DNA of 64,000 nt, taken from the NCBI GenBank assembly GCA_037133395.1, contig JBAXOG010000004.1, positions 19 to 64,018 on the forward strand. The letters run 5' to 3'. Within the stretch, counting starts at the first letter, position 1, and each line of letters starts with the position of its first letter. Positions 20,170 to 47,130 of this stretch are shown one piece after another. The stretch is from a bacterium. Its GTDB lineage: Bacteria > Verrucomicrobiota > Kiritimatiellia > RFP12 > UBA1067. The position numbers were made by a program, and so were the translations under genes. The notes beneath the pieces are model-generated. The model had not been told where the DNA came from, ran no database searches, and was given only the letters and a program-made list of their open reading frames with translations.

Positions 20170-21057
20170 CTATTTTTTCGTACGTGTAGCAGATTCGAGG
20201 GTGTTATACAGAAGCATGGTAATAGTCATGGGGCCGACGCCCCCGGGAACAGGTGTAATCAGCGAGGCGACCTGCGTTGCGGAATCGAAGTCGACATCGC
20301 CGACGAGACGGAAGCCGTTTTTCTTAGTGGCATCTGGAATGCGGTTGACGCCCACATCAATGACAACGGCGCCAGGCTTAATCATGTCACCTGTGACCGT
20401 ATTCGGACGGCCTGCGGCTACAACCAAGATATCCGCTTGCCGGGTAAAGACGGACAAATCTTTCGTGCCCGTATGGCAGACGGTCACCGTGGCGTTGCCG
20501 CCTTTGGCCTTGCGCATCAGCAGGTGCGCGACGGGCTTGCCGACAATGTTGCTACGACCGATCACGACCGCATGCTTACCTGAGGTCTCGATACCTGCGC
20601 TGATCAGCATTTGTATGATGCCGTTCGGTGTGCAGGGCAGGAAGCAGGTCTCGCCAATCATCATGCGGCCTACATTGATGGGCGTGAAGCCATCGACATC
20701 CTTTTCAGGGACGATGGCGTTAATGACTGCGGCTTCATTAATATGTTTCGGCAGTGGAAGCTGTACGAGAATGCCATGAATGCGCGGATCACTATTCATC
20801 TTTCGGACAACGGCCAGAGCCTCTTCTTGTGTGGTTGTGGCGGGCATACGTACATCCTCCGAATGCATGCCCGCTTCCTCGCAGGCCTTTTCCTTGGCGG
20901 TCACGTAGGAGGTGGATGCGGGATCGAGTCCAATGAGGATCACGCCAAGACCGGGCGTGATGCCATGCTGGGTCTTGAGCTCCGCGACTTGCTTTGCGAT
21001 ATCTGCGCGCATCGTTGCTGCGAGTTGTTTACCGTCGAGTATCATTGCTGAGTTCAT
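20170..21057 (-). CDS. folD: Bifunctional methylenetetrahydrofolate dehydrogenase/cyclohydrolase
   Basis: YV..K, GILVQLPLP, KDVDG, PCTP, GRSNIVGKP, IDVG.NR, TPVPGGVGPMT. Confidence 0.97.
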   Translation of the reverse strand: MNSAMILDGKQLAATMRADIAKQVAELKTQHGITPGLGVILIGLDPASTSYVTAKEKACEEAGMHSEDVRMPATTTQEEALAVVRKMNSDPRIHGILVQLPLPKHINEAAVINAIVPEKDVDGFTPINVGRMMIGETCFLPCTPNGIIQMLISAGIETSGKHAVVIGRSNIVGKPVAHLLMRKAKGGNATVTVCHTGTKDLSVFTRQADILVVAAGRPNTVTGDMIKPGAVVIDVGVNRIPDATKKNGFRLVGDVDFDSATQVASLITPVPGGVGPMTITMLLYNTLESATRTKK

Positions 21058-21060
21058 AAT

Positions 21061-21550
21061 GAAGTTCCAATAATCAACACGGAATATCCAATATCCAATG
21101 GCCTACTTGGGGACAAGGATGTTCTGTGGGTTGTTGTTTCTTTTTGCGGTTGTGACACAGGTGAAAAGAATAGAAATGAGTTCATCTGTTTCTTGTAGAA
21201 GAGGGAGTAACTTCTCGGTTGGTTTTATCATTTCTGTTTTGACGATAATCTTCAACCAGACGTTGGTCTCACGGAGTTCCTTTAATGCAATTTTGACCTT
21301 GTGGATGAAGTCGGGCCTCGACTCTGCGCTTTGAGCTTCTCCGTAGTTTGGTGCTGGAGATGTTCCGCTTCGTAAAAGTTGTCCGCAAATGTGTTGTCCC
21401 GCACTTGAACATGGAAGTGCCTCAGACAGTTTAATAATGCGCACGGCAAAATTAATCAGCCTGTCTTGCAAGTCATATTCTTTTTTTTCGGACATCAAGG
21501 TGTCTTCCTAACTTGGATATTCCGTGTTGATGATTGAATGTTGGGACTTC
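21061..21550. mobile_element. Inverted-repeat-bounded cassette carrying a four-helix-bundle gene (putative; no transposase)
   Basis: Perfect 19-bp IR ATCAACACGGAATATCCAA (21073-21091) with TTGGATATTCCGTGTTGAT (21513-21531). Outer 9/10 IR GAAGTTCCAA (21061-21070) with TTGGGACTTC (21541-21550). Ends abut the folD start region and the mutS stop. Confidence 0.55.
21103..21495 (-). CDS. Four-helix bundle protein (TIGR02436 / 23S rRNA intervening-sequence protein family)
   Basis: DLQDRLINFAVRII, QLLRSGTSPAPNYGEAQSAESRPDFIHKVKIALKELRETNVWL. ATG at 21495 follows AGGAAG. Confidence 0.92.
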   Translation of the reverse strand: MSEKKEYDLQDRLINFAVRIIKLSEALPCSSAGQHICGQLLRSGTSPAPNYGEAQSAESRPDFIHKVKIALKELRETNVWLKIIVKTEMIKPTEKLLPLLQETDELISILFTCVTTAKRNNNPQNILVPK

Positions 21551-24048
21551 TAAAAGAGCGTCAATTGGTTGGAGGGGGCTTGAATATGTTTTTTCGATGT
21601 TGATTTGGCGAGTTTAGGCAGACCAGCCTCGAGTTCGCCCTCTTCGAGGTTGGCTAAGATTTCGTTTGAGCGCAAGAGGACCTCAGCCGGCATACCCGCG
21701 AGACGTGCGACATGGATGCCGTAACTTTTGTCCGCCGTGCCAGGCGCGATGCGGCGTAGGAAAACCACGCTGTCGCCATGTTCGCGCACTTGGACGGTGT
21801 AGTTTTTGACGCCGTTCAGGGTGATGGCCAGATCGGTCAGTTCGTGATAATGCGTGGCAAAGAGTGTCTTGGCTTTGACACGGGGCGTATTATGTAGATA
21901 TTCCGCGACAGCCCATGCGATGCTGATTCCATCAAAGGTGCTGGTTCCTCGTCCGATTTCATCGAGCACGATCAAACTCTTTTCGGTCGCATTGTTCAGA
22001 ATGTTCGCGGTTTCCTGCATTTCGACCATGAAGGTACTGCGACCGCGAGCTAGGTCATCGCCTGCACCGACACGCGTGAAGACGCGATCCAAGATACCGA
22101 TTTGTGCGCTACGCGCAGGAACGAAGGACCCCAGATGCGCCATAATCGCGATCAACGCAACTTGACGGATATACGTGGATTTACCCGCCATGTTCGGTCC
22201 GGTGATGAGCATGATTTGATGCAACGTGCAATTAAGCAACGCATCATTCGGGACGAACTGTTCGGCGTCGGGGAGTTGTTCAATGACGGGGTGGCGTCCA
22301 TCCTTAATGCTCAGCGTGTCATCCAGTGTCATTTCGGGGCGGACATAACCCAGCGCGAGGGCCCGGTCAGCGAACGAAGCCAGCGCATCCAGTTGCGCCA
22401 GAGCATCGGCGGTTTCCTGGATTTCAGCGGTATGGGTGGCTATTTTTTCCCGAATTTCGCAGAAAAGCTCGAATTCCATCGCGACTGCCTTGTCCTGAGC
22501 GCCAAAAATCTTCTGCTCGTAGGTTTTGAGCTCTGGGGTGATAAAGCGTTCGGCATTGACGAGCGTCTGGCGGCGTTCATACTCTGGCGGCGCGGAAGCA
22601 GCCTGCCCCTTGGAGATTTCGATATAAAAGCCAAAAATTTTGTTATGGCGCACTTTGAGGGTCTTAATGCCGGTCCGATCCTGCTCGGAGGCTTGGTACT
22701 TCGCGAGCCAGGCATGACCTTCGGAAGCTAAGGCCCTGAGTTCGTCCAAGTCCTTATGATAGCCATGGCGGATCATGCCGCCGTCCTTGAGGCCGATGGG
22801 AGGCGAATCATCGATGGCCGCATGAATGAGGTCCACAAGTTCAGGCAAGGGGTGGATACGACTAGAAAGGTCAGAAAGCAACGCATCTCCGGTTTGTGCC
22901 ATGCTCTCTCGGATTTCGGGCATCGGAAGGAGTGATCCTTCTAACGCTTTGACATCACGGGCATTACATCGATTGGCGTTGATGCGAGCCACGAGGCGTT
23001 CTAAATCGCGGACACTTGCGAATTTTTCGCGTAAGTTATTTAAAACAAGACGGTTACGTGTAAAAAACTCAACGGTGTCCAAACGGGCGTGAATTTCGAT
23101 CTGCTGGCGTAGCGGACGGACGATCCAGGAGCGGAGCAGGCGTGCGCCCATCGGGGTTCGCGTATTGTCCAAAACGCCCAAAAGTGTATGTTCCTTAGCT
23201 TTCCCTCGTTGAGGGATCAAATCGAGGTTCCCGCACGTATTGTCATCTAGCATCAGAAAATGGGCAGAATGACGGACTTGGAGGGATCGAATATGCCCTG
23301 CGGTATGGTGAAGTTGTTCGCAGACATACTGAATAAGAGCCCCAGAGGGGCAAACGAGGGCTGGGACGCCCTCGCATCCGTATCCCTGAAGAGAATGGAC
23401 CTGGAAATGGCGCAGGAGCCGGTCATACGCGCAATCATACTCCAGAGTCCAGTCATCGATTTCCGTTACAGAACCTGCAATGGACGGAACAAGAATCTCA
23501 ACAAGGCGCGGATCAGAGCGTTGCATCGGACCGACCAAACATTCGCTCGGTGCATACCGCTTCAAGGCTTCCATAAGCGAAGCAATATCCGGAAGAATTT
23601 CCGCCATAAATACGCCGGTAGAAAGGTCGAGAAGTGCGAGCCCGATATCTGCGTTCACGACATAAAGGGCAGCCAGAAAATTGTTGCGGGATGAATCAAG
23701 AATCTCGTCCTCTGTCACCGTACCTGGCGTGACCACGCGAGTGACCTCCCTGCGGACGATCCCTTTTGCCTGAGAAGGATCTTCCATTTGGTCGCAGATC
23801 GCTACCTTTTTCCCTGCACGGATGAGTTTGGCCAAATAGGCATCGATAGCATGGTAAGGTACGCCACACATGGGGGTGCCCGCGCGTTGTGTCAGCGCGA
23901 CACCGAGAAGAGGGGCTGCGGCACGGGCATCCTCAAAAAACATCTCATAAAAATCACCCAGACGAAACAAAAGAATAACGCCTTCTGGAAGTTCAGATTT
24001 AATTCGCCGATATTGCCGCATCATAGGAGTAAGTTCTTCAGAAGACAT
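21550..24048 (-). CDS. mutS: DNA mismatch repair protein MutS
   Basis: TPMMRQY, FRLGDFYEMF, ITGPNMAGKSTY, STFMVEM, DEIGRGTST, FATHYHEL, SYGIHVARLAG, beta-clamp motif QLTLF. Confidence 0.98.
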   Translation of the reverse strand: MSSEELTPMMRQYRRIKSELPEGVILLFRLGDFYEMFFEDARAAAPLLGVALTQRAGTPMCGVPYHAIDAYLAKLIRAGKKVAICDQMEDPSQAKGIVRREVTRVVTPGTVTEDEILDSSRNNFLAALYVVNADIGLALLDLSTGVFMAEILPDIASLMEALKRYAPSECLVGPMQRSDPRLVEILVPSIAGSVTEIDDWTLEYDCAYDRLLRHFQVHSLQGYGCEGVPALVCPSGALIQYVCEQLHHTAGHIRSLQVRHSAHFLMLDDNTCGNLDLIPQRGKAKEHTLLGVLDNTRTPMGARLLRSWIVRPLRQQIEIHARLDTVEFFTRNRLVLNNLREKFASVRDLERLVARINANRCNARDVKALEGSLLPMPEIRESMAQTGDALLSDLSSRIHPLPELVDLIHAAIDDSPPIGLKDGGMIRHGYHKDLDELRALASEGHAWLAKYQASEQDRTGIKTLKVRHNKIFGFYIEISKGQAASAPPEYERRQTLVNAERFITPELKTYEQKIFGAQDKAVAMEFELFCEIREKIATHTAEIQETADALAQLDALASFADRALALGYVRPEMTLDDTLSIKDGRHPVIEQLPDAEQFVPNDALLNCTLHQIMLITGPNMAGKSTYIRQVALIAIMAHLGSFVPARSAQIGILDRVFTRVGAGDDLARGRSTFMVEMQETANILNNATEKSLIVLDEIGRGTSTFDGISIAWAVAEYLHNTPRVKAKTLFATHYHELTDLAITLNGVKNYTVQVREHGDSVVFLRRIAPGTADKSYGIHVARLAGMPAEVLLRSNEILANLEEGELEAGLPKLAKSTSKKHIQAPSNQLTLF

Positions 24049-24707: not shown

Positions 24708-24753
24708 CCTAACGTTTTTCGTTTGATTTGAATCAGTCTAATTGGAGAAAAGA

Positions 24754-27700
24754 ATGAATACAACAACACGGTTCACAACTATGATTAAGAAAATGGTTCT
24801 CCCTCTCGTTGCGTGCGGCTTGATGTGCGCGACGGGCGCTTATGCGATTGATCCTCCTGGGGATATTATCGGGTTCTACTCGACATCAGCGAATTCGGCT
24901 TTTAAGACACCTGGAACAACCGTGGAATTTACGATTCGTCTCTATGGGGCGATAGTTGTTTCAAACTTCTATGGTGCCGCCTGGGCCGCGCCTCAGATAC
25001 GTATGGAGGTCGGTTCGGACGGTGAATCTTCAACGGCTTATGCCACGTTAGTCGATAAAACATGGACAGTTCCCAGTAATCCGTTCGATGTGTTTAATAG
25101 GACGGATTTGACGTTCGCTTATGTGATTCGTCCTGGGGATATGGCGAATCCGCTTAAGATCTGGGGTACGCCAGCATCGGGGTTCCAGATTGTCGATATG
25201 CAGAATTTAATTTACAGAAGATATGCAGATGGCACGTCAAGTAACGTTACCTGGAAAGTGAATCCCGCACTCTATGATCAGCCCCTTGACAACCCCCTTG
25301 ATTCTAATAAAGGTATTCCCTATTTAGACCTTGACATGTCGGCCCAAAAAATTAGTCTTCAGACGCTGAGTTTTGATGCTGCAAATAGTCCTAGCCCGAT
25401 TGTGGCACGTCAACCGGCAACGCTTTGGCGCGTCAAGTCCGGAGCAACGAACGCACCAGTGGGTGTGGAAGTCATCGTCTGGACGCCTCACACCAATGTC
25501 CTTCAGATCGTAGGTGCTACTCAGATAGGTTCTGTTCCTGGAAACGCGTTGTCGGTAATAATCCCAGCAGGGTCTGATTATGTGAACTTCCCGATCAAGG
25601 GTCTTGACACCAATGCTAGCCCCACAATTGCAACGGTTTATGCCCAGCGTCCATCGGATTATGCGAAAAACATAACGGGTATTACGAACTTCATTAGCCG
25701 CTCGGTGACAATTCTGCCGGGCTCGCCCTCGATAAGTCTGGAGTTTTCGAATGGACTGTCCAGTCAGACGCTGGCAGAGACACATGATGAGACGGAGCAA
25801 TTGGAGTATTTCCAGATCGTTCTTTCCGAGTCTCATACGAACGATGTTTATGTTGATTTGAGTATAACACAACAGCCAAGCACAGCGACCAATATCGTCA
25901 TGACCCAGCCAAGTGGGTATTTCGTTCCTGCGGGTCTGGAAAGATCAGAGAAGTATACCTTCAGCGTCAGGGATGGTACACGTGAAAGTGCCCGTTTGAT
26001 TACGCCAGTGCGTATCACACCCTTAGCTACAAACAAGTATACGGTCGTTTCGGCGGGAACGTTGTTTATTACGAATGTCGCCCCGACAATCATCAGTGAT
26101 TTCCCACCCACTGGGTATGAATATACGCCTGTGACTTTTCAATGGACGAGTCTCTTTGACGTGACGGCGGACTTGGCCAAGGGAATCGTCTTTACGTGGG
26201 ACTTTGGTGACGGTGCGACGCGTATTACGGAGACGAACTTGACCTCCGCGACATCTGGTCAGATCACGAAGACCTATAAAAATATTGGTTCTACAGCAAG
26301 AACGTACCTCGTCACGCTGACAATCACAGATGCTGATGGAGGTTCTTACACATTACCGACTCACACCATTACCATTAATCCGCCAATCAGACCGCCCAAC
26401 GTCTCGGTGGTTGTAAATCGCGCAGACTTGACTTATCAAGAGGGGGATACGAATGCTACCTATCGAGTTGTCCTCTCAGAGCCTGCTCAACAGGATACGT
26501 GGGTGCAGTTGAAATGTCAGTATCCGGATGCAACATCCGCAGATGCTTGCCTCTCCTTGTTAACAACCAACATTCTGATCCGCCAAAACTTCACTAATTC
26601 TTCAGCATACGCGATGACGATTCTTGATGGCACGTCAGTGACCGCATCCGGTATCGATATTATGCCGACGATTACTAATGCCATAGCCAAAGCTCAGTAT
26701 CCAAGTGCTTATCCTGGCATTGTCATGATCCAAAATGCGGTTCCTACGATTGACACCATACCTTCCAGTCAGTCGAGCACGACAGTACCTATTACGACTT
26801 TTAACGCTATCGAGATCAATAAGCCCTTTACCTTCCACTATAGAGCGGCTGATGTCAGCGCAGACCTGAATGGAGCGTCACCGATACGTGTTATGTTCGA
26901 GTTTCCCGATTTCACTACGACTAATGTTGTTGGTGCAATCGGCACGGTGACAAAGACCTTTACGTTATCTGATTTGGGAATTCAGTACGTGCGCATGACC
27001 GCCACGGATAAGGATGGTGGCGTGAGCAGTATTGTCACCTTCCCAATCAATGTTGTTACTCCCTTGCCGCCGCCTTCAGTCACGGTTGTTTCGTATCCAG
27101 TCTTTATTGCTGAAAACGATACCACCGCCAAACAACTCACCGTTATGTTGTCTCAAACACCAGCCTCTGCTGGCATTTCGCAACCTGTGACGGTCTATTT
27201 GGATATGACGCCGACCACGAACACGGTCAATGGTGCGGTTTCAATCCCTACCAGTGTTACGTTCTACACTTCTGAAACGACCAAGCAGGTTCTTTTCACG
27301 GTCAAAGATGGTACACAGCTGAGTGCCAGTAGCGGATTCACGATCACGCCTCGCATTGCGACCAATACCGCCGGTTCTACGTTGTATACTGAGTTTCAGC
27401 CCGGCCAGGTCTTGGTGCAAAATGTGGCACCTGTTTTCCAACAGCCAGTTGACGGGAGCACCAACACGGTTGCAACGGTCGGACAGCTCCGTACCTTTAA
27501 CTGGTCGGTCAAAGATGTAACGGCTGATTTAACGGGCATGACGCTCGACTGGGACTGGGGTGATGGTACCACGACCAGAACGATAGGGGGTTCCGGCACC
27601 ACCAATCACACCTACCTCTCCGCATCTTCCCAGATCGCAGTCACCGTGATAGCGACCGATAAGGACGGAGATGTTTCACGTATCAGTTTCTATGTCACGG

Positions 27701-30700
27701 TTAAAGATTCTAAGAAGGTCATCGCCTTGCCGATCGGTCCCAATACGACTCCTTTTAATGGGTTCACAGGTTTGGGAATAGGCACCATTGCAGCTACTGG
27801 CGCAAGCCCGTCGGTTTATGATGGTGTTAATTTGTTCTATACCTTCTATTTCGGTGCTGATGCGACGGATGCTCAACTGATTGCAACGCCGTCGCCCAAG
27901 ATCTCTGGTGTTAAGCAAAGTTACTTCTTTGCATGGGATGGTCCGCTTGCGGCATTCAAGGAGCCCAAACATGTGACGCAGCCCCTTGCTCCAGCGGTTA
28001 CATTGATCAATTTGCCAACCCCAACAACCGGCACGGCTACAGGTACGGGTACAGGGACGACGACGCTCAGTGGAAACAGTGTCCAAGTCAGTGCCATTTT
28101 CAGTATTGAATTCGAGATGAATGATGGTTGTGGCGATATCAATCAGGACGGTATCCCTGACAAACTCATTCAAACCTATTTCATTGACCCAACAAAAACC
28201 GCCGCGAGTGCTACTGCGATAGATCCGATTTGGTTTGTCAATTTACGGGGATACAACGACGACAATGATTTTTACCCAGTCTATCCGACGGGGGATGCTC
28301 AGGGCGTCATGGACTTCCGTCCGATTCCGAATCCCAACACAGCGGTTGACGGTCTTGCTGTGAACGCCTTCACAGCGTTCAAGGAAATCCGTGGGGTTGA
28401 TGGTATTATTGGACGTGTAGAAAATCTGGGCCCCCCCCGCGGTAATTTCAATGATGATCCAGGGACGAATCCGACATTGCTTGATACGGATGAGGATGGG
28501 TATCCCGACGGTTGGGAGTCTTGGTTCTATTATCAGTCTTACAAGAATGGACGCACGGGTTCGCGTTATGATCCCCTCAATATCGCGCAGGGTTCCCGTA
28601 TAGGTTGGCAAGAAATTATTGGCGCATTTAACCCGAAGGTGGGTCGTGATAAGTACTCAGATACACGTTGGCTAGATGATTTTGACAATGACGGGCTCTT
28701 GGATATTGAAGAACTGACCCTTGGTACGGATCCGACGAATTGGGATACGGATGGTGACGGTATGGCCGATGGTTGGGAAATTATCCGTGGTTTCAACCCC
28801 TGCGATGGTCGTGACGGCTTATTGCCGGCACAGAACAATCCAGATGGTGACTTCTTTGCGATCTCAACGGCTGTGCGTCAGCATATTCAGGTGGTCGTAT
28901 CGAGCAATACCGTGATTTCAACCAACCACTACCTTGTGGCACTTGATGCAGCGAACACTCCGATTTATGCTACACTCACAACAGCTTATCATTATGGTAA
29001 TGACTCAGCGCCTTGGGCTGTCGGGCGATCAAATTCTGTTGCTGTTCTGACGCCACCTAATCTCATTGCCGGTGGTCCCACGAATGAGATGATTAACGCA
29101 TTGATCATGCACTTCCAGGTGCGTGATGAATATGGCTTTGATCCTCGGACAGCCTGGGTGGGCACAGCTAAGGGTGGCCCAGTTCCAGCAGGTTGGCCGT
29201 ATGAGAATACCGACCGTTTCGGTGTCTGGGTGCCAAGCCATTCGCCGAATACGCGTCCGTTTACGGCGGTTGATGAATATCTCCTTATGAAGTTCATGTA
29301 TGAGCTTCAGTTGAATGGCATGGTTGGACCGAATGGTTGGATCGACCAAGTGACGACCCATATAGCGAATAATGAGAGCACACGTCTCTTGGTGCAGGAC
29401 GCTTGGACACGTTTTACCACGCATCCGCGTACGCCTGATACGGATGCCACAACGGCGTTGTCGGATGGCGTGCCAGACGGCTGGGAATTATATGTGGCGT
29501 TGCCGCCTGTCTCGCACGGTGTTCCTCGTCCGGCTTATGGGGCATTTCTTAACTCGCCGTGGGATCCGAATGACTACGCCAATGATGTTGATGTCGATTT
29601 GAAACCGACGGGGGACAAAGTCACGTATCAAAGCGAATTCTGGGGAACTGATTCCCTGAAACCTTATCAAAATGCGACACTCTACTATGGTGGCATGACG
29701 AATGCAAACCTGATGACCGGTGTGGTCACGATCAAGCGTCCGATAGGTGATCCGGATACGTATTGGGCCAACAAATTATGGCCGACTGATCCTTGGAATA
29801 AAGATACCGATGGTGACATGGTGGCTGACGGAGCCGAACGTGCCTTTATTTACGGTAATGCTACTGTGCCTGGCCCGGGTGGCGGTTTGAACCCGTGCTC
29901 GATCGATACCGACCTTGATGGGCTCCCGGATGCCTGGGAATTGCAGTTCGCGGGTACCCCGGTTGCTGCTGATGGAACAACGACTTTGCCAGCAGTCATC
30001 CCTGGACAGCCTGCAATAGCTGTCACTATGACGATCAATAATGGTCAGGACGGTACGGTTGCTGATCAATACAAGGACGTGGATTTAGATGGCCTTACCA
30101 GTTATCAGGAGTATATGACGCAGTCCATCCGTGCATATCGTTATGATATACCCGCATCGGGTGTCACCGATCCTTTGACTAAACAGGTCGGTCAGCCCAT
30201 GGACATTACCTTCCAAATAAGTTCACTCTTCACGGCGGTGACAAATGTATGGGATCCATGCCGTTTTGGATGGCCAGGACCGACCGACCCACTTTATTGG
30301 ATGCCTCCTGCGGGTCCGAACGGATATTGTTCGACAGATCCGAACAATCCGGACTCGGACTATGACGGTATGGACGATTACTATGAGCTCTACCATGGGT
30401 TGAACCCATTGCTGGGTGATGGTATAAGGTTAGACTATCTCGATGACCGGGTTGCGTATGCTTGGATTGTTAAAGGCGTTCCTCAGGTGTGGTATAGTTA
30501 TAATTGGTGGATGAATGTACAGCCTGGAACGATCGGTTTTTCAATGGACTTTGTCCGCTATCCTTGGTTGAATGGTATGCCTGATGCTGATCCAGATGCT
30601 GACGGCCTCCTGAATCTCGAGGAGATGTTGGTTGCCAATACGCCGTTGCCTGAAAATTATAACACGGATCCGTCTCCGCTCTGGATGACCGATCCATCGA

Positions 30701-33700
30701 ATACAAGTAGTATTACAGCCCGCTTCTATTCGCCTAAAGCGATGTTCTTCTGGCCGGCAACATTTATACCGCTTTTCACGTTCTCGTTCGAGATGAACGA
30801 AGGGTATGATACGGATAACGACGGGGGTTCGGATAAGGATGAACTGATTACCAACCGAGGGGCGAAGTCTGACCCGCGCGACAGTGAAGACCCGCTTCGC
30901 CGTCAGGCGCTTTGGTTCAGCGGAACCAATTCTGCTGCCGTGACACCTTATATATACTCGGATTACACCTCCGCTTCTGGGGCGGCTTTCTGGAATATGG
31001 ATCAGGCATTCCGAAGTTTCACTGTTGAACTGTGGGCGCGTCCCGAATGGTCGACCAATAATAATGTTCAGATTTTGATTGAACGCGTATTTAACTATGG
31101 GCAGTCCGACGCCAGCCAGGTTGTTGGGCAACGTCTGCGTCGCAACTTCCTGATCGGTATTGAGACAGATGGCCGCGTTTTTGGCGGTTTCGACAATGCC
31201 GGTGGGCATGACGAACATACCGATACGGTTCGTTTCTACGGTGATAAGGTTGCTTCTAACACGTGGGTTCACATAGTAGCCCGTATGGATGGACGTACTC
31301 AGTTGTTCACGCTTTTTGTCAACGGCGTTTCTCAGGGTGATATGGCGACGTCTCTGATCCCGGCCACGGGTATTGATGCGGTTCGGCTCTACCCGACACA
31401 AAGTGAAACAAATACTATCGTCTATCGGCGAGGATCGTTGACAATAGGTGCTGGAAGCACCGCTCTTTCGTCACTTGGCATCGGCATTGGTTCTTCCATG
31501 TCTTGGTTGACTGCATGGTCGAACTATAATAATTTCTATCGTGGCTGGATCGATGAAGTGCGTGTCTGGGATGGTGCGCGAAGCAATACGGAAATCAGCG
31601 ATAACTTCAAGAAGCGTTTCACGCGCGAGGATATCCTTGCGAATCGGACGAAGATTCTGGCAGAGCTGAACAGTGGTGCAGGACGTAGTGCACTCTCGTT
31701 GAATAATTACTTGTCGCCGATCTTGTTGAATTACTATACCTTCAACAATTTGTTTAGTGCGAATGAGGATCCGTATGTCGCGACGGTGCCGCGTGGCTTT
31801 AATAGTACAGCGCTTAATGCGAATCGTCCGAGCGGTAATGCAACGGGTGCAACCGTCGGGTGGTGGAATCGATGTGTTGTGAAAAGTACGGTTTATACAA
31901 ACTTTAACTATCTGCCATGGATTGAGAACTTGGTTGCACACCTGCCGCGTGTGACATTGCTCACGAGCACGAATGGTGCGACGACTACTTATGTGAATGA
32001 CAATGTTGTCTCTGATTCCATTTACTGGACACGCCGTGCGGCAGGGAACATTGAAACGCAGAACAGCTTCCCGAACAATAATAACCCTTATGGTTTCTTG
32101 TACAATACAACCCTAAATGGCGTAATATACAACGTAGCTCAATCCGTTGACCTGCTACCGATTGGTATGGCTTGGGCGAAACAGTGTGTTGACTTCTGGG
32201 ATGACAAGGGAGCTTCAGGCAACTGGCTGGAAAACAGCGGGACAACTGATGACGGTCTGCCGTCGTGGTGGATAACGTTACATGGTACAACAGGCGGCTG
32301 GAATGACCTCTATACGGGTAGCGATGCTTTTTATAAAACGAGCGGCATGACCAACGGCGAGGTGTATCAACGCAACTTAGCTAAAGGCATGTTGCCGAGC
32401 GCAACCACGACCTCGGACTTCAATACATCGTATGCACAGACTGCTGACAGCAGTGGCAGTGGCATACCGGACTGGTGGAAGAATATCTATGGTCTCAGCT
32501 TAGCGGCTAAAACAGGCGCGAATGGTCCCCTAGGCGATCCAGACATGGATGGGTTATCCAACTATGCGGAATACCAGATTTCAGAAGTGTACAAGTTCCG
32601 GTATTCAAGTCCGATCAAGTTTAAGACGGATCCTGCTCAGCCATTGTCTGACTACTTCATGAAGCCAACGGGTGGTAAACTGACCCTGGGTGCCATGTTC
32701 TCTGACCACGATTTTATTGAAGATTGGTGGGAAGAGCTGTACTCGCCAACGGCGGCAAATCCTTATGTGTATGATTCGAAGACAGACTATGATTTTGATG
32801 GTTGGTCGAATTGGGCTGAAGCCCGTTACAGTCAAGCCATTGCAACCGTTCGCCCGGATCTCAGTGAACTGGTCATGGTCAATGGGATCAGGACATACGA
32901 ATTTCCGATTCCGGTTGTTGATACTCGCCTCAACTATAAGGGGATCGAGACCAGCGGAAATGTTGTGATTCAAGCATTTTCAAGTTCGTCTATGAATGGG
33001 GATCCAGACGCAACATGGAAGATCGCCTTTGGACAAGCAGGCGTTCAGGCAAATACGGTGCCACTCGGGTTTTATGAGGACAAGACGATTCGTGCTCGCC
33101 TCTCGCCAGGGTCGGTCGTTCCAGGAACGATTCACCTCCAGTTGACGGATACGTGGACAGGGGTAACTGCAACCACAGGTTTTGACAAGGGTGGTGTCAT
33201 CTATTCCATGGATGTCAATAATGTTTGGGAACCGATGGGAACCATCAATTATATTACAGGCGAAATGGTCTTTGACATGGGGACAAGCAGAGACATTATC
33301 CTTGATGCGGCGTCATACCCAACTAATCGTGATAGTTATGTTGAAGCTGCCATCTCTTACTTCGAGATGACCTATAGTACCAAGTTGCCGTCTGGCTGGC
33401 CGCAACATATCTACTTGGGTCGTGCGGCAACGGGTGCATTGAAGGAAGGAAAGAACTATTTCTTTGCCTTTATCGATGCTGATGCTAATGGCGCCTGGGA
33501 TGCCGGCGAACCAGCAGGCATCGGGACACCGTTTGAGACAGAAATTGGATGGGACGCGAATGCGCTTGATATCCAGTTGACGGATTATACACCGAATAAC
33601 CTGCGTCTTTCGTTGACCACAGGATTGCGCTCCGAGGATGTCATCTTCGGGACAGGAACTCAGCAAGGCGGTGGACAGCAAGCGGCGACTACAGCCAACG

Positions 33701-35355
33701 GTTACAAGCGCGTCCGCATCATCCGTGCGGCTGTTCAGACCAGTAACTTCACAGAAGGCCCAATCTTTGATAAAACCATTTATGGGCGTGATTATATCCA
33801 TGAAGGTGACCTAATGACCATGCCTTCTTATGCAGGATATGGATTGGATTGGGGCTTCAAAGGTGTTCAGTACCCGAATGCTGTGGGGGCTATTACCTAC
33901 AAGGTGTATGTGGGCGATCAAGACACGGTTACCAACAATACGCTTGTTGCGGCATTTACGAATAAGTTTGACGGTGCGCGTGCCGTACCTACGAGCATTT
34001 TGCCGGCTCATGGCGCGTATGTTTATACCGCGCGTCCAACATTTACGTGGTCGCTGACCTCCACGTATGGCGGCTATAATGCCTTTGCATTTGAAATACG
34101 CCGCGGTTCGACAACAGGGGCTTTGGTTTACCCAATAACGGTGCGTCAAGCGCCCTTGAAGGATACGGCCACCGATAATTACATCTGGGAAGCTCCGTTC
34201 TACATGGGTGATAAAAATGTGGTGAACAACGGTGTCTATTATTGGCGTCTTCAGATGCTGAATCCGAGATACAGTACCAATACGACTACGCCCTCAGAAT
34301 GGTCGTCCTGGAAGATCTTCCGTTGGGATGTCAACCCGCCGTTGTCTCCTGTCGGAACAGCGACGAACCTGAACGGATCGTCGTCGGGGTATGGACAGCT
34401 CAGGGCTATGGTTAAGTACTTTGGAGCAGCAACCAATCTTGCTGATCGCGTAGTATTACAGGCGTTTAATAATCGTGGCTTCACAGGCTTCCCTGCTGGG
34501 CAATTCACGTATGCAGCAAGCCAGACTGGTTTAATCACAAATATGAGTCTGTCTGCGACGAATGCGATCGCGATGCGTGGTCTGACGCCTGGCACTTATT
34601 ATGTGCGTGCCTTCATCGACTCGAACACCAATGGCCTGTTTGATGCGTGGGAATCTTGGGGTTATGCGAATTACTACGGCGAAACAACGTCTCTCTACGA
34701 TGTGCGCCCTGTTGAAGTTTCCTATTCGGCGATTAGTCCGCTAGTGACGATCTACATTGAAGATAGCGATGCGGATCAGGACTGGTTCCCAGATGCCTAT
34801 GAGTATGAACTGAATCCTGCATCAACGAACTTCCTCGAATTGACAGGACCCAACGACGCTTGGAATTATCGCGGGGACTCGGAAATCAATCCTACGAATA
34901 CGGTTTCAGGTGGCTTCTTTAGCATGATGATATCTATGGTGGCTGGCTCAGGCGTTCAACAGGAGTCCGTCCTCAACTTGGTTGTGGGTGAAAGCACGAC
35001 GACCGCGGCGACACCCCCTGCCGTGAAGATCCAGAGTTTGAGCTTCAGCGAGGCTGGTTCGATACTGGACTTTGACTTGACGGCTGGAAAGACAGCGCAA
35101 TCCACGTCGACGTTTATGAAATCGCTACTGGGTGCTCCTGTTGCGTTGAGTGCGGCGACAGGGAAGGTTTATACGTATCGGGTCAGGTTCTCCGCCTCTC
35201 TTGCGACGCCGCGGCCGTGGGAGACGATTGTTAAAGAAGATACAGTCACGGTTGACGCGAATGGCACAAAGACAATCACAAGCGTGATTGACAACATGCC
35301 TGCTGCGGGTACTGGCGGATTCTTCTATGTTGAGATCATAGAGAACATCCAGTAA
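24754..35355 (+). CDS. Giant secreted surface protein (~3530 aa) with Ig/PKD repeats, TSP3-like Ca-binding repeats and a LamG domain
   Basis: Signal peptide ending AYA; PKD motifs WDFGDG and WDWGDG; many DTDxDGxPDGWE repeats; LamG (FTVELWARP...WVHIVA...GWIDEVRVWDGAR); GGAG SD before ATG at 24754. Confidence 0.85.
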   Translation: MNTTTRFTTMIKKMVLPLVACGLMCATGAYAIDPPGDIIGFYSTSANSAFKTPGTTVEFTIRLYGAIVVSNFYGAAWAAPQIRMEVGSDGESSTAYATLVDKTWTVPSNPFDVFNRTDLTFAYVIRPGDMANPLKIWGTPASGFQIVDMQNLIYRRYADGTSSNVTWKVNPALYDQPLDNPLDSNKGIPYLDLDMSAQKISLQTLSFDAANSPSPIVARQPATLWRVKSGATNAPVGVEVIVWTPHTNVLQIVGATQIGSVPGNALSVIIPAGSDYVNFPIKGLDTNASPTIATVYAQRPSDYAKNITGITNFISRSVTILPGSPSISLEFSNGLSSQTLAETHDETEQLEYFQIVLSESHTNDVYVDLSITQQPSTATNIVMTQPSGYFVPAGLERSEKYTFSVRDGTRESARLITPVRITPLATNKYTVVSAGTLFITNVAPTIISDFPPTGYEYTPVTFQWTSLFDVTADLAKGIVFTWDFGDGATRITETNLTSATSGQITKTYKNIGSTARTYLVTLTITDADGGSYTLPTHTITINPPIRPPNVSVVVNRADLTYQEGDTNATYRVVLSEPAQQDTWVQLKCQYPDATSADACLSLLTTNILIRQNFTNSSAYAMTILDGTSVTASGIDIMPTITNAIAKAQYPSAYPGIVMIQNAVPTIDTIPSSQSSTTVPITTFNAIEINKPFTFHYRAADVSADLNGASPIRVMFEFPDFTTTNVVGAIGTVTKTFTLSDLGIQYVRMTATDKDGGVSSIVTFPINVVTPLPPPSVTVVSYPVFIAENDTTAKQLTVMLSQTPASAGISQPVTVYLDMTPTTNTVNGAVSIPTSVTFYTSETTKQVLFTVKDGTQLSASSGFTITPRIATNTAGSTLYTEFQPGQVLVQNVAPVFQQPVDGSTNTVATVGQLRTFNWSVKDVTADLTGMTLDWDWGDGTTTRTIGGSGTTNHTYLSASSQIAVTVIATDKDGDVSRISFYVTVKDSKKVIALPIGPNTTPFNGFTGLGIGTIAATGASPSVYDGVNLFYTFYFGADATDAQLIATPSPKISGVKQSYFFAWDGPLAAFKEPKHVTQPLAPAVTLINLPTPTTGTATGTGTGTTTLSGNSVQVSAIFSIEFEMNDGCGDINQDGIPDKLIQTYFIDPTKTAASATAIDPIWFVNLRGYNDDNDFYPVYPTGDAQGVMDFRPIPNPNTAVDGLAVNAFTAFKEIRGVDGIIGRVENLGPPRGNFNDDPGTNPTLLDTDEDGYPDGWESWFYYQSYKNGRTGSRYDPLNIAQGSRIGWQEIIGAFNPKVGRDKYSDTRWLDDFDNDGLLDIEELTLGTDPTNWDTDGDGMADGWEIIRGFNPCDGRDGLLPAQNNPDGDFFAISTAVRQHIQVVVSSNTVISTNHYLVALDAANTPIYATLTTAYHYGNDSAPWAVGRSNSVAVLTPPNLIAGGPTNEMINALIMHFQVRDEYGFDPRTAWVGTAKGGPVPAGWPYENTDRFGVWVPSHSPNTRPFTAVDEYLLMKFMYELQLNGMVGPNGWIDQVTTHIANNESTRLLVQDAWTRFTTHPRTPDTDATTALSDGVPDGWELYVALPPVSHGVPRPAYGAFLNSPWDPNDYANDVDVDLKPTGDKVTYQSEFWGTDSLKPYQNATLYYGGMTNANLMTGVVTIKRPIGDPDTYWANKLWPTDPWNKDTDGDMVADGAERAFIYGNATVPGPGGGLNPCSIDTDLDGLPDAWELQFAGTPVAADGTTTLPAVIPGQPAIAVTMTINNGQDGTVADQYKDVDLDGLTSYQEYMTQSIRAYRYDIPASGVTDPLTKQVGQPMDITFQISSLFTAVTNVWDPCRFGWPGPTDPLYWMPPAGPNGYCSTDPNNPDSDYDGMDDYYELYHGLNPLLGDGIRLDYLDDRVAYAWIVKGVPQVWYSYNWWMNVQPGTIGFSMDFVRYPWLNGMPDADPDADGLLNLEEMLVANTPLPENYNTDPSPLWMTDPSNTSSITARFYSPKAMFFWPATFIPLFTFSFEMNEGYDTDNDGGSDKDELITNRGAKSDPRDSEDPLRRQALWFSGTNSAAVTPYIYSDYTSASGAAFWNMDQAFRSFTVELWARPEWSTNNNVQILIERVFNYGQSDASQVVGQRLRRNFLIGIETDGRVFGGFDNAGGHDEHTDTVRFYGDKVASNTWVHIVARMDGRTQLFTLFVNGVSQGDMATSLIPATGIDAVRLYPTQSETNTIVYRRGSLTIGAGSTALSSLGIGIGSSMSWLTAWSNYNNFYRGWIDEVRVWDGARSNTEISDNFKKRFTREDILANRTKILAELNSGAGRSALSLNNYLSPILLNYYTFNNLFSANEDPYVATVPRGFNSTALNANRPSGNATGATVGWWNRCVVKSTVYTNFNYLPWIENLVAHLPRVTLLTSTNGATTTYVNDNVVSDSIYWTRRAAGNIETQNSFPNNNNPYGFLYNTTLNGVIYNVAQSVDLLPIGMAWAKQCVDFWDDKGASGNWLENSGTTDDGLPSWWITLHGTTGGWNDLYTGSDAFYKTSGMTNGEVYQRNLAKGMLPSATTTSDFNTSYAQTADSSGSGIPDWWKNIYGLSLAAKTGANGPLGDPDMDGLSNYAEYQISEVYKFRYSSPIKFKTDPAQPLSDYFMKPTGGKLTLGAMFSDHDFIEDWWEELYSPTAANPYVYDSKTDYDFDGWSNWAEARYSQAIATVRPDLSELVMVNGIRTYEFPIPVVDTRLNYKGIETSGNVVIQAFSSSSMNGDPDATWKIAFGQAGVQANTVPLGFYEDKTIRARLSPGSVVPGTIHLQLTDTWTGVTATTGFDKGGVIYSMDVNNVWEPMGTINYITGEMVFDMGTSRDIILDAASYPTNRDSYVEAAISYFEMTYSTKLPSGWPQHIYLGRAATGALKEGKNYFFAFIDADANGAWDAGEPAGIGTPFETEIGWDANALDIQLTDYTPNNLRLSLTTGLRSEDVIFGTGTQQGGGQQAATTANGYKRVRIIRAAVQTSNFTEGPIFDKTIYGRDYIHEGDLMTMPSYAGYGLDWGFKGVQYPNAVGAITYKVYVGDQDTVTNNTLVAAFTNKFDGARAVPTSILPAHGAYVYTARPTFTWSLTSTYGGYNAFAFEIRRGSTTGALVYPITVRQAPLKDTATDNYIWEAPFYMGDKNVVNNGVYYWRLQMLNPRYSTNTTTPSEWSSWKIFRWDVNPPLSPVGTATNLNGSSSGYGQLRAMVKYFGAATNLADRVVLQAFNNRGFTGFPAGQFTYAASQTGLITNMSLSATNAIAMRGLTPGTYYVRAFIDSNTNGLFDAWESWGYANYYGETTSLYDVRPVEVSYSAISPLVTIYIEDSDADQDWFPDAYEYELNPASTNFLELTGPNDAWNYRGDSEINPTNTVSGGFFSMMISMVAGSGVQQESVLNLVVGESTTTAATPPAVKIQSLSFSEAGSILDFDLTAGKTAQSTSTFMKSLLGAPVALSAATGKVYTYRVRFSASLATPRPWETIVKEDTVTVDANGTKTITSVIDNMPAAGTGGFFYVEIIENIQ

Positions 35356-46860: not shown

Positions 46861-46883
46861 AAACCAAAGAAAACGATTCCAAA

Positions 46884-47006
46884 CCATCTTCTTTCATCCA
46901 GACTTTACTGTCGGCCACGGAATTCAAACCGTGTCAGTGCCTTGTTGGACAAGGCAGTCGCGGGCTTTACCGCCGGTTGGGAATCTCGCCCAGCCCCGAA
47001 GACGCT
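46884..47006 (-). ncRNA. FMN riboswitch (RFN element)
   Basis: Minus strand TCTTCGGGGCTGGGCGAGATTCCCAACCGGCGGTAAAGCCCGCGA...GAATTCCGTGGCCGACAGTAAAGTCTGGATGAAAGAAGA matches the RFN consensus; upstream of the rib operon. Confidence 0.95.
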
Positions 47007-47130
47007 TGTTGAGAATGATTACTATACCCCATTTCCCTTGGTTTTGGCAAGCCTGCACTTTTACTGAAATTAGATATTCATTTGCGCCCCCTCATGGTGT
47101 AATATATGCTCTTTGACTTAGGAGCAATAG

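Follow-up and report, generated by a model that had tools for sequence, protein, structure and literature searches.

In the 64,000-nucleotide stretch of DNA analysed here (the window), a four-helix-bundle gene lies between mutS and folD, enclosed by two inverted arms of about five heptamers. Gene and arms probably form a promoterless, horizontally mobile cassette of the type represented by the ORF-bearing intervening sequences (IVSs) of 23S rRNA, lodged in this case in a protein-coding operon. What is new here is that the arms belong to a dispersed family of gene-less hairpins and that the arm word is coupled to a protein subfamily across phyla.

The minus strand of the window reads mutS, a 130-aa ORF and folD (Table 1). 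A first-pass annotation had described a 19-bp perfect inverted repeat with a 9/10 outer repeat, extending from the final base of the mutS stop to 3 nt before the folD ATG; sequence reading and a repeat search bear out the former, and the coordinates the latter. Its description of the arms as heptamer-built and bulged also holds: TRF finds a period of 7, and when the minus-strand transcript is folded to minimum free energy, a 7-nt bulge protrudes from one arm. Smith–Waterman alignment of the upstream flank to the reverse-complemented downstream flank scored 43, whereas none of 30 shuffles exceeded 21, and the arm–arm RNA duplex reached -38.9 kcal/mol, against -13.1 (s.d. 3.4, best -25.8) in 500 shuffles. 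The inverted repeat of the arms is far beyond chance. Folding the minus-strand transcript had been suggested as a check, and the stem does form in the prediction: for the 531-nt transcript, pair probabilities are 0.9–1.0 in 18 of the 19 core pairs, 0.66 in the innermost pair and ~0.77 in the five outermost pairs. Just upstream of mutS, on the opposite strand, the window also holds a 3537-aa ORF rich in repeated domains (24742–35355, plus strand).

Table 1 Features of the mutS–folD cassette, in window coordinates.
Feature	Position	Strand	Description
mutS	21550..24048	-	832 aa, upstream host gene; Pfam MutS_I to MutS_V, E 1e-16 to 2e-85
mutS stop TAG	21552-21550	-	sequence reading
5' arm (in transcript)	21513..21550	-	outer helix 21541-21550, extra heptamer (bulge), core 21513-21536
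AGGAAG, putative ribosome-binding site of four-helix-bundle gene	21504..21509	-	8 nt before ATG, just inside stem; by reading
Four-helix-bundle gene	21103..21495	-	130 aa from ATG; PF05635 / S23p family
3' arm	21061..21098	-	core 21068-21091, outer helix 21061-21070, unpaired inner heptamer 21092-21098
folD	20170..21057	-	295 aa, downstream host gene
folD ATG	21057-21055	-	3 nt past 3' arm of cassette
Inverted arms	21068-21091 / 21513-21536		24 nt each, 96% complementary (repeat search)
Perfect core	21073-21091 / 21513-21531		19 bp
Outer arm pair	21061-21070 / 21541-21550		9/10 matched
Tandem repeat	21083-21099		period 7, 2.4 copies (TRF)

The cargo had been called AT-richer than its neighbours and free of a transposase. 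Both descriptions stand: its GC content is 0.41–0.47, compared with 0.50–0.60 in the flanks, and the ORF list contains no transposase-sized ORF within the cassette. On the minus strand the cassette contains nothing resembling a promoter or terminator, and it has no Rfam match. The Rfam scan detected no rRNA in the window or at eight other four-helix-bundle loci; elsewhere in the window lies an FMN riboswitch (46882–47007, minus strand, 105.9 bits). Because its host is mutS–folD and not rRNA, the cassette is outside the rRNA IVS class. RNase III is encoded in the same genome.

We refer to the genome holding the window as G000, to its congeners as G001–G005 and to genomes of other genera as G017 and G024. 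Throughout the genus mutS adjoins folD, and the cassette is present in G000 and G005 only. The spacer between the aligned parts measures 49 nt in G003, 52 nt in G002, 55 nt in G004 and 72 nt in G001, and G017 is also empty, with about 25 nt from stop to start and the same type of ribosome-binding site; these junctions in four congeners and one other genus agree with the earlier view of the cassette as inserted. Empty spacers of G001–G004 contain a small GC hairpin and a ribosome-binding site, and in G000 folD lacks both the native ribosome-binding site and the spacer hairpin. The cassette replaced a native spacer of 45–70 nt (GC hairpin and folD ribosome-binding site) and did not split it. The arm is followed by ATGAAC, which forms the first two folD codons in G000 and is otherwise found only in G005; the native folD ATG stands directly behind ATGAAC in G005 and is gone in G000. 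No target-site duplication was seen at mutS–folD when filled and empty forms were aligned. The native spacer hairpin was considered as a repeat family or landing pad and rejected: it is unique to the locus in G001 and G003 and absent elsewhere in five genomes and G000.

In four metagenome runs from four studies we encountered the filled form only, with contigs spanning both junctions and none skipping 21061–21550, a contig comparison that cannot reveal rare alleles. No RNA run is among the sequencing runs listed as containing this DNA, and a metatranscriptome from a shared sample contained almost none of its words. In four freshwater metagenome runs, the bin covering the left arm (window 21037–21103) had a summed depth of 93–290, against <10 in the neighbouring bins, and loose ends are numerous there; these communities are therefore rich in the arm word.

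The cassettes of G000 and G005 are alike in the bulge heptamer, the outer helix and the trailing ATGAAC. In the folD tree, G000 groups with empty G003 and G002, and G005 with empty G004 and G001. Between G000 and G005, folD has a dS of 2.2 and mutS is saturated (LWL85 1.79), compared with 0.46–0.61 (bootstrap 0.36–0.96) for the cassette gene. The 5' arms differ at 2 of about 40 positions and the 3' arms are identical over 38 nt, so that 2 of about 78 arm positions differ, versus 22% in the flanking genes. Its gene is far less diverged than the saturated host genes, so the cassette moved as a unit. The 150-nt flanks are 75–77% identical between G000 and G005 and 79–84% between G000 and G003. 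Since the flanks of the two cassettes are not unusually alike, the cassette either entered twice at the same site or passed from one lineage to another almost without adjoining DNA. The patchy distribution and a cassette dS far below that of the hosts support the proposal that it has spread without its own transposase.

In G024, folD is followed downstream by a four-helix-bundle cassette of 72% identity. Beside it (L026:590–1000) runs a long tandem array whose ~120-nt unit consists of the arm word alternating with GC-rich segments. Our search for a carrier vehicle found none: the plasmid collection returned 31 records, all at <60% identity and mostly from Nostoc, and the phage collection 2 records at 34%.

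PF05635 is the sole family match of the cassette ORF (59.1 bits against a cut-off of 33.8, profile positions 5–104 of 106), and the protein matches the solved S23-family structure PDB 2RLD with an E value of 1.5e-18. Its AlphaFold2 model is a helical bundle (pLDDT 88.6), which Foldseek aligned to 2RLD with TM 0.71–0.77 / 0.81–0.89 and to 2GSC (Xcc0516) with TM 0.72–0.76 / 0.84. The best structural matches of the predicted fold are thus 2RLD and 2GSC, with DGR Avd weaker; assignment to the family of 23S rRNA IVS proteins was correct, and the likeness to Avd that had been raised alongside it is the lesser one. PDB 2RLD, a Bacteroides thetaiotaomicron protein, contains five chains, and Xcc0516 is described as a homopentameric ring (Lin et al. 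2006, as cited in the part of PMC4990558 available). A dN/dS of 0.066 against the G005 ortholog shows that the gene is functional and under strong purifying selection. Across 24 sequences drawn from many phyla, a block of ~20 residues around GTSPAPNYGEAQSAES shows little or no variation. An Rx4-6H motif of HEPN type was considered in the cassette protein and rejected, its arginine not being conserved in the alignment; the literature search found no HEPN link to these proteins or cassettes.

The arm core recurs genome-wide in G000. With an nhmmer profile built from seven copies, we found a hairpin family at 31 loci; at 17 of these the match covers 86 or more of the 95 model positions. The 3' arm of the cassette matches model positions 1–41 as a weak member, and the cassette arms are a diverged copy of this gene-less family, with 1 gene-bearing copy against 30 gene-less ones in G000. 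A typical example (C20:12811–12905) consists of five heptamers, a short conserved loop and five heptamers inverted. Among 22 gene-less hairpins examined, 16 lie ≤16 nt from the 3' end of a gene, often overlapping or touching the stop codon, in either orientation (9 versus 7).

The family is found in all five congeners. Orthologous hairpins are 84–98% identical, compared with 70–81% for their flanking genes and flanks, and at further sites a hairpin present in one species is missing from another; at three such sites, where the spacers are strongly diverged, no duplication was seen. G000 and G005 have many full-length hairpins, G002 and G003 few. G001 (78% complete) holds 5–7 full-length hairpins, yet its best homolog of the cassette protein is 38% identical. 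Across these six related genomes, the satellites do not clearly seem to need a cognate gene. Several copies in G000 have unusual surroundings or contents. Outside the window, at C25:6184–6651, a tRNA-Ser(GCT) sits between two complete hairpins of opposite orientation; at C111:5725–5845 and C123:14875–15002, a second small GC-rich hairpin is nested in one hairpin arm; and copies on C16 and C85 carry unrelated 45–60-nt loops between the same arms.

A scan of named genomes returned 80 loci encoding proteins 60–74% identical to the cassette protein (the G005 ortholog is 92% identical). By record titles, these belong to Verrucomicrobiota, Lentisphaerota, Kiritimatiellota, Planctomycetota, Cloacimonadota, Desulfobacterota, Omnitrophota, Armatimonadota, Calditrichota, Chlamydiota, Acidobacteriota and others, and 76 of them have enough flank for arm analysis. 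An inverted repeat scoring at least 30 is present at 44 of the 76 (shuffle maxima 6–27), no strong inverted repeat at 32 and direct repeats scoring at least 30 at 8; the cassette layout is not universal among these loci. We searched for a 29-nt word copied from a G000 hairpin, allowing ≤6 mismatches and ≤150 nt from the gene. The word was found at 62 of the 76 loci, in about 15 phyla, and was missing at 14; at 34 loci it stands on both sides, inverted. Variants with CGAA in place of CCAA occur in Desulfobacterota and at one Planctomycetota locus. In control windows 600–1500 nt away, it occurred in 2 of 818.

Within the 34 loci preselected for the word, median identity over 561 pairs is 0.67 for the protein, 0.31 at fourfold sites and 0.86 for the arm word. 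In the same preselected set, AA is invariant at word positions 1–2, 8–9, 15–16 and 22–23 in all 68 arms. The word accompanies this protein subfamily through about 15 phyla, over distances at which synonymous sites have reached saturation. With ≤3 mismatches, the word occurs 2–35 times in five genomes of other phyla (reversed control, 0), some copies forming gene-sized pairs and some short pairs. At many loci the arm reaches the start codon and provides an AAGGA ribosome-binding site, and neighbours are co-oriented with the four-helix-bundle gene at 63 of 70 upstream and 51 of 66 downstream positions.

Nine four-helix-bundle genes are present in G000, on contigs C1, C4, C15, C19, C23, C60, C116 and C151, and a single one of them carries this arm word. 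The first-pass annotation had called for a survey of these genes for heptamer-built inverted arms, and its expectation held in part: repeat-built inverted arms above shuffles flank six of the nine, three show no clear repeat, and the units of the paralogs differ, including an octamer and a decamer. Other four-helix-bundle genes in the genus likewise carry other units. At least two of the paralog units in G000 (octamer, decamer) are also dispersed in tens of copies. The ATTGCGTT octamer flanking the C151 gene gave about 100 array hits at 91 loci of G000, mostly in one orientation only under the strict pattern; the reversed-pattern control is invalid for this unit because its reverse is a circular permutation of itself. 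In G005 and G002, a subfamily at 34–37% identity to the cassette protein (L053, L054, L055 and L057) has AACTTTAG-type arrays that flank the gene on either side as direct, not inverted, repeats, so that no stem would form.

Whether the arms act as RNA or as DNA was approached through strand asymmetry. Over 44 loci, G–U-compatible mismatches gave no significant sense-RNA signature (27 sense versus 18 antisense, p 0.23), and the sense duplex was not significantly more often the more stable one (27 of 44, against 17 of 44 for antisense, p 0.20). For the mutS–folD cassette the antisense duplex is the stronger, at -45.1 versus -38.9 kcal/mol. Strand-wise folding of the short hairpins gave no consistent strand difference, and a loose 11-mer pairing search returned mostly false pairs. 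Given the stronger antisense duplex and the lack of a significant strand bias, a role at the DNA level is just as possible. RNA-level looping or RNase III processing of the cassette would be plausible.

At the RNA level, the cassette would be transcribed by read-through from mutS, and its arms would pair as a stem of ~25–35 bp that brings the mutS stop beside the folD start, an arrangement by which the insertion could stay tolerable. A ribosome halting at the mutS UAG would sit at the base of the stem, and the opposite stem strand would end 3 nt before the folD AUG and bear the only nearby GGA, so that translation of mutS could open the folD start. RNase III could plausibly act on the stem as well, as in rRNA intervening sequences. 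The first-pass interpretation as a whole, an mRNA-level intervening element whose stem joins stop and start or is processed out and which spreads by an undescribed route, is partly supported.

The constancy of the arms may involve the protein. We infer from covariation that the four-helix-bundle protein, whose solved relatives form pentameric rings, recognises its own heptad word on the arms and on the gene-less satellites, and that this recognition would keep the word constant. The constraint on the word is tied to the subfamily, 7-periodic and far beyond the needs of pairing, and protein recognition is therefore its simplest explanation; common descent of gene and arms contributes to the covariation. 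More tentatively, PF05635 proteins may be sequence-specific readers of heptad-periodic words, one per subfamily, with the cassette and its gene-less satellites forming a network that acts on host transcripts, moves between phyla and perhaps creates a dependence of the cell on the gene. Such a network might, for instance, hide RNase III stems or lay them open, or couple adjacent cistrons.

Other explanations of the same locus have to be weighed. The arms could be terminal inverted repeats for a transposase encoded elsewhere, in a MITE-like non-autonomous transposon of which one copy took the four-helix-bundle gene as a passenger. Dispersed gene-less copies with conserved termini (31 loci in G000), presence and absence between species, and arms that enclose loops of differing length would all fit. 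Yet of the features that define MITEs, the many copies with conserved terminal inverted repeats were found and a target-site duplication was not, either at mutS–folD or in three other filled/empty comparisons, and the native spacer was replaced, not split. Constraint with a 7-nt periodicity also extends over the whole 29-nt word instead of the termini alone, and the word remains tied to a single protein subfamily across phyla (62 of 76 loci), a fidelity not expected of a passenger gene; we regard a transposon of this kind as unlikely. A captured gene is also the core of a further proposal, in which a REP- or terminator-like hairpin family of the host acquired the four-helix-bundle gene once and gene and arms are functionally unrelated. 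The 30-to-1 ratio of gene-less to gene-bearing copies in G000 and the position of hairpins at gene 3' ends in either orientation (9 versus 7) are what it would predict. Against it, the gene–word pairing recurs in about 15 phylum-level groups, individual genomes from other phyla contain several gene-sized copies, different subfamilies have different words, and a fourfold-site identity of 0.31 speaks against one recent transfer across phyla, which together make a single capture very improbable.

A purely RNA-level element, in which the stem is an RNase III site splitting the mutS–folD mRNA and the ORF is a decaying relic, would have a stem long enough for the enzyme, an RNase III gene in the genome and a precedent in Coxiella, where the IVS RNA is excised and the S23p ORF is apparently decaying (PMC4990558, in the part available). 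The ORF here is nonetheless intact, with a dN/dS of 0.066 over a dS of 0.6, its 20-residue block hardly varies, if at all, among the 24 sequences compared across many phyla, and the cassette gene has a well-placed ribosome-binding site, so that a relic seems a poor prospect. Least credible is descent from a DGR accessory (Avd) gene that lost its retroelement. PF05635 has been reported as Avd-like (PMC10053308, in part), and the model shows a weak fold likeness to 4DWL (TM 0.58/0.68, E 0.3) and to the DGR RNP 8UBB (0.56/0.64), but the closest structures are the S23p-type 2RLD and 2GSC, and the three reverse-transcriptase genes of G000 lie on contigs (C163, C36 and C208) that hold none of the nine four-helix-bundle genes. 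The cassette gene is not a DGR Avd, as no reverse transcriptase is nearby.

A horizontally mobile cassette of the IVS type bears on several standing problems. PF05635 proteins are abundant and two are solved structurally, without known function; ORF-bearing rRNA intervening sequences and dispersed heptamer repeats have likewise been observed for a long time without an explanation. The mutS–folD locus is a clean natural experiment: its empty and filled alleles are exact, the cassette is younger than the genes around it, and ~30 satellites exist alongside one gene-bearing copy. Together with a 29-nt non-coding word whose strict 7-nt beat persists across phyla, these features turn the function of PF05635 into a direct binding question, and arms that abut the stop and start codons of the neighbours show how an insertion can sit between two essential-pathway genes. 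If PF05635 proteins do read such words, this would be the first function for a very large 'unknown' family, and dispersed heptamer repeats and ORF-bearing rRNA IVSs would be explained in one scheme.

Among known systems, integron cassettes resemble the present one as promoterless, co-directional single-gene units expressed by read-through, with an imperfect palindrome at the boundary. They differ in that the palindrome here is split around the gene, and there is no integron platform and no integrase was seen. DGR Avd is a pentameric nucleic-acid-binding ring. Its structures (4DWL, 8UBB) share the four-helix-bundle fold with the cassette protein, whereas the cassette has no adjacent reverse transcriptase or template/variable repeats and the fold likeness is moderate (TM 0.58–0.68, identity 14–16%).

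For the gene-less ~95-nt hairpins, the best analogue is probably the Correia (NEMIS) family of Neisseria. Correia elements insert at TA with duplication, whereas none was seen at mutS–folD; they also differ in being gene-free, with no heptad words coupled to a protein family. They are dispersed inverted-repeat elements beside genes and co-transcribed, and their hairpins bind RNase III and are cut or protected (PMC2649163, in part). Heptamer repeats offer a second likeness: GGGAATC heptamers form 70–75 convergent pairs in Xanthomonas (PMC4692102), TAACTGA repeats occur in Beggiatoa and cyanobacteria, including Nostoc (PMC4679880), and heptanucleotide elements in Geobacter (PMC2700814). As far as the available parts of these papers describe them, such repeats share with our hairpins the form of intergenic 7-nt arrays, often in inverted pairs and conserved between related species. 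The same parts contain no link to four-helix-bundle genes. Nor did we find a description of four-helix-bundle cassettes outside rRNA in the literature searched, which yielded only rRNA IVS work and repeat surveys.

The ORF-bearing 23S IVSs of Coxiella burnetii (helix 45), Leptospira and other bacteria share with the cassette an S23p (PF05635) ORF in a stem loop of terminal inverted repeats, tandem heptamers in the arm just before the start codon, a size of about 430–490 nt and the lack of a transposase (PMC4990558, in part). The Coxiella IVS holds its S23p ORF in a 28-bp stem with tandem heptamers, which RNase III cuts at the first heptamer (same source). There RNase III is described as cutting the stem, whereas the stem here is predicted from sequence and fold. 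The ORF is reported to be decaying in Coxiella (PMC4990558, same part) and is here under strong purifying selection. Their host is rRNA and ours the mutS–folD mRNA spacer, and here, unlike there, the arms also occur as about 30 gene-less satellites.
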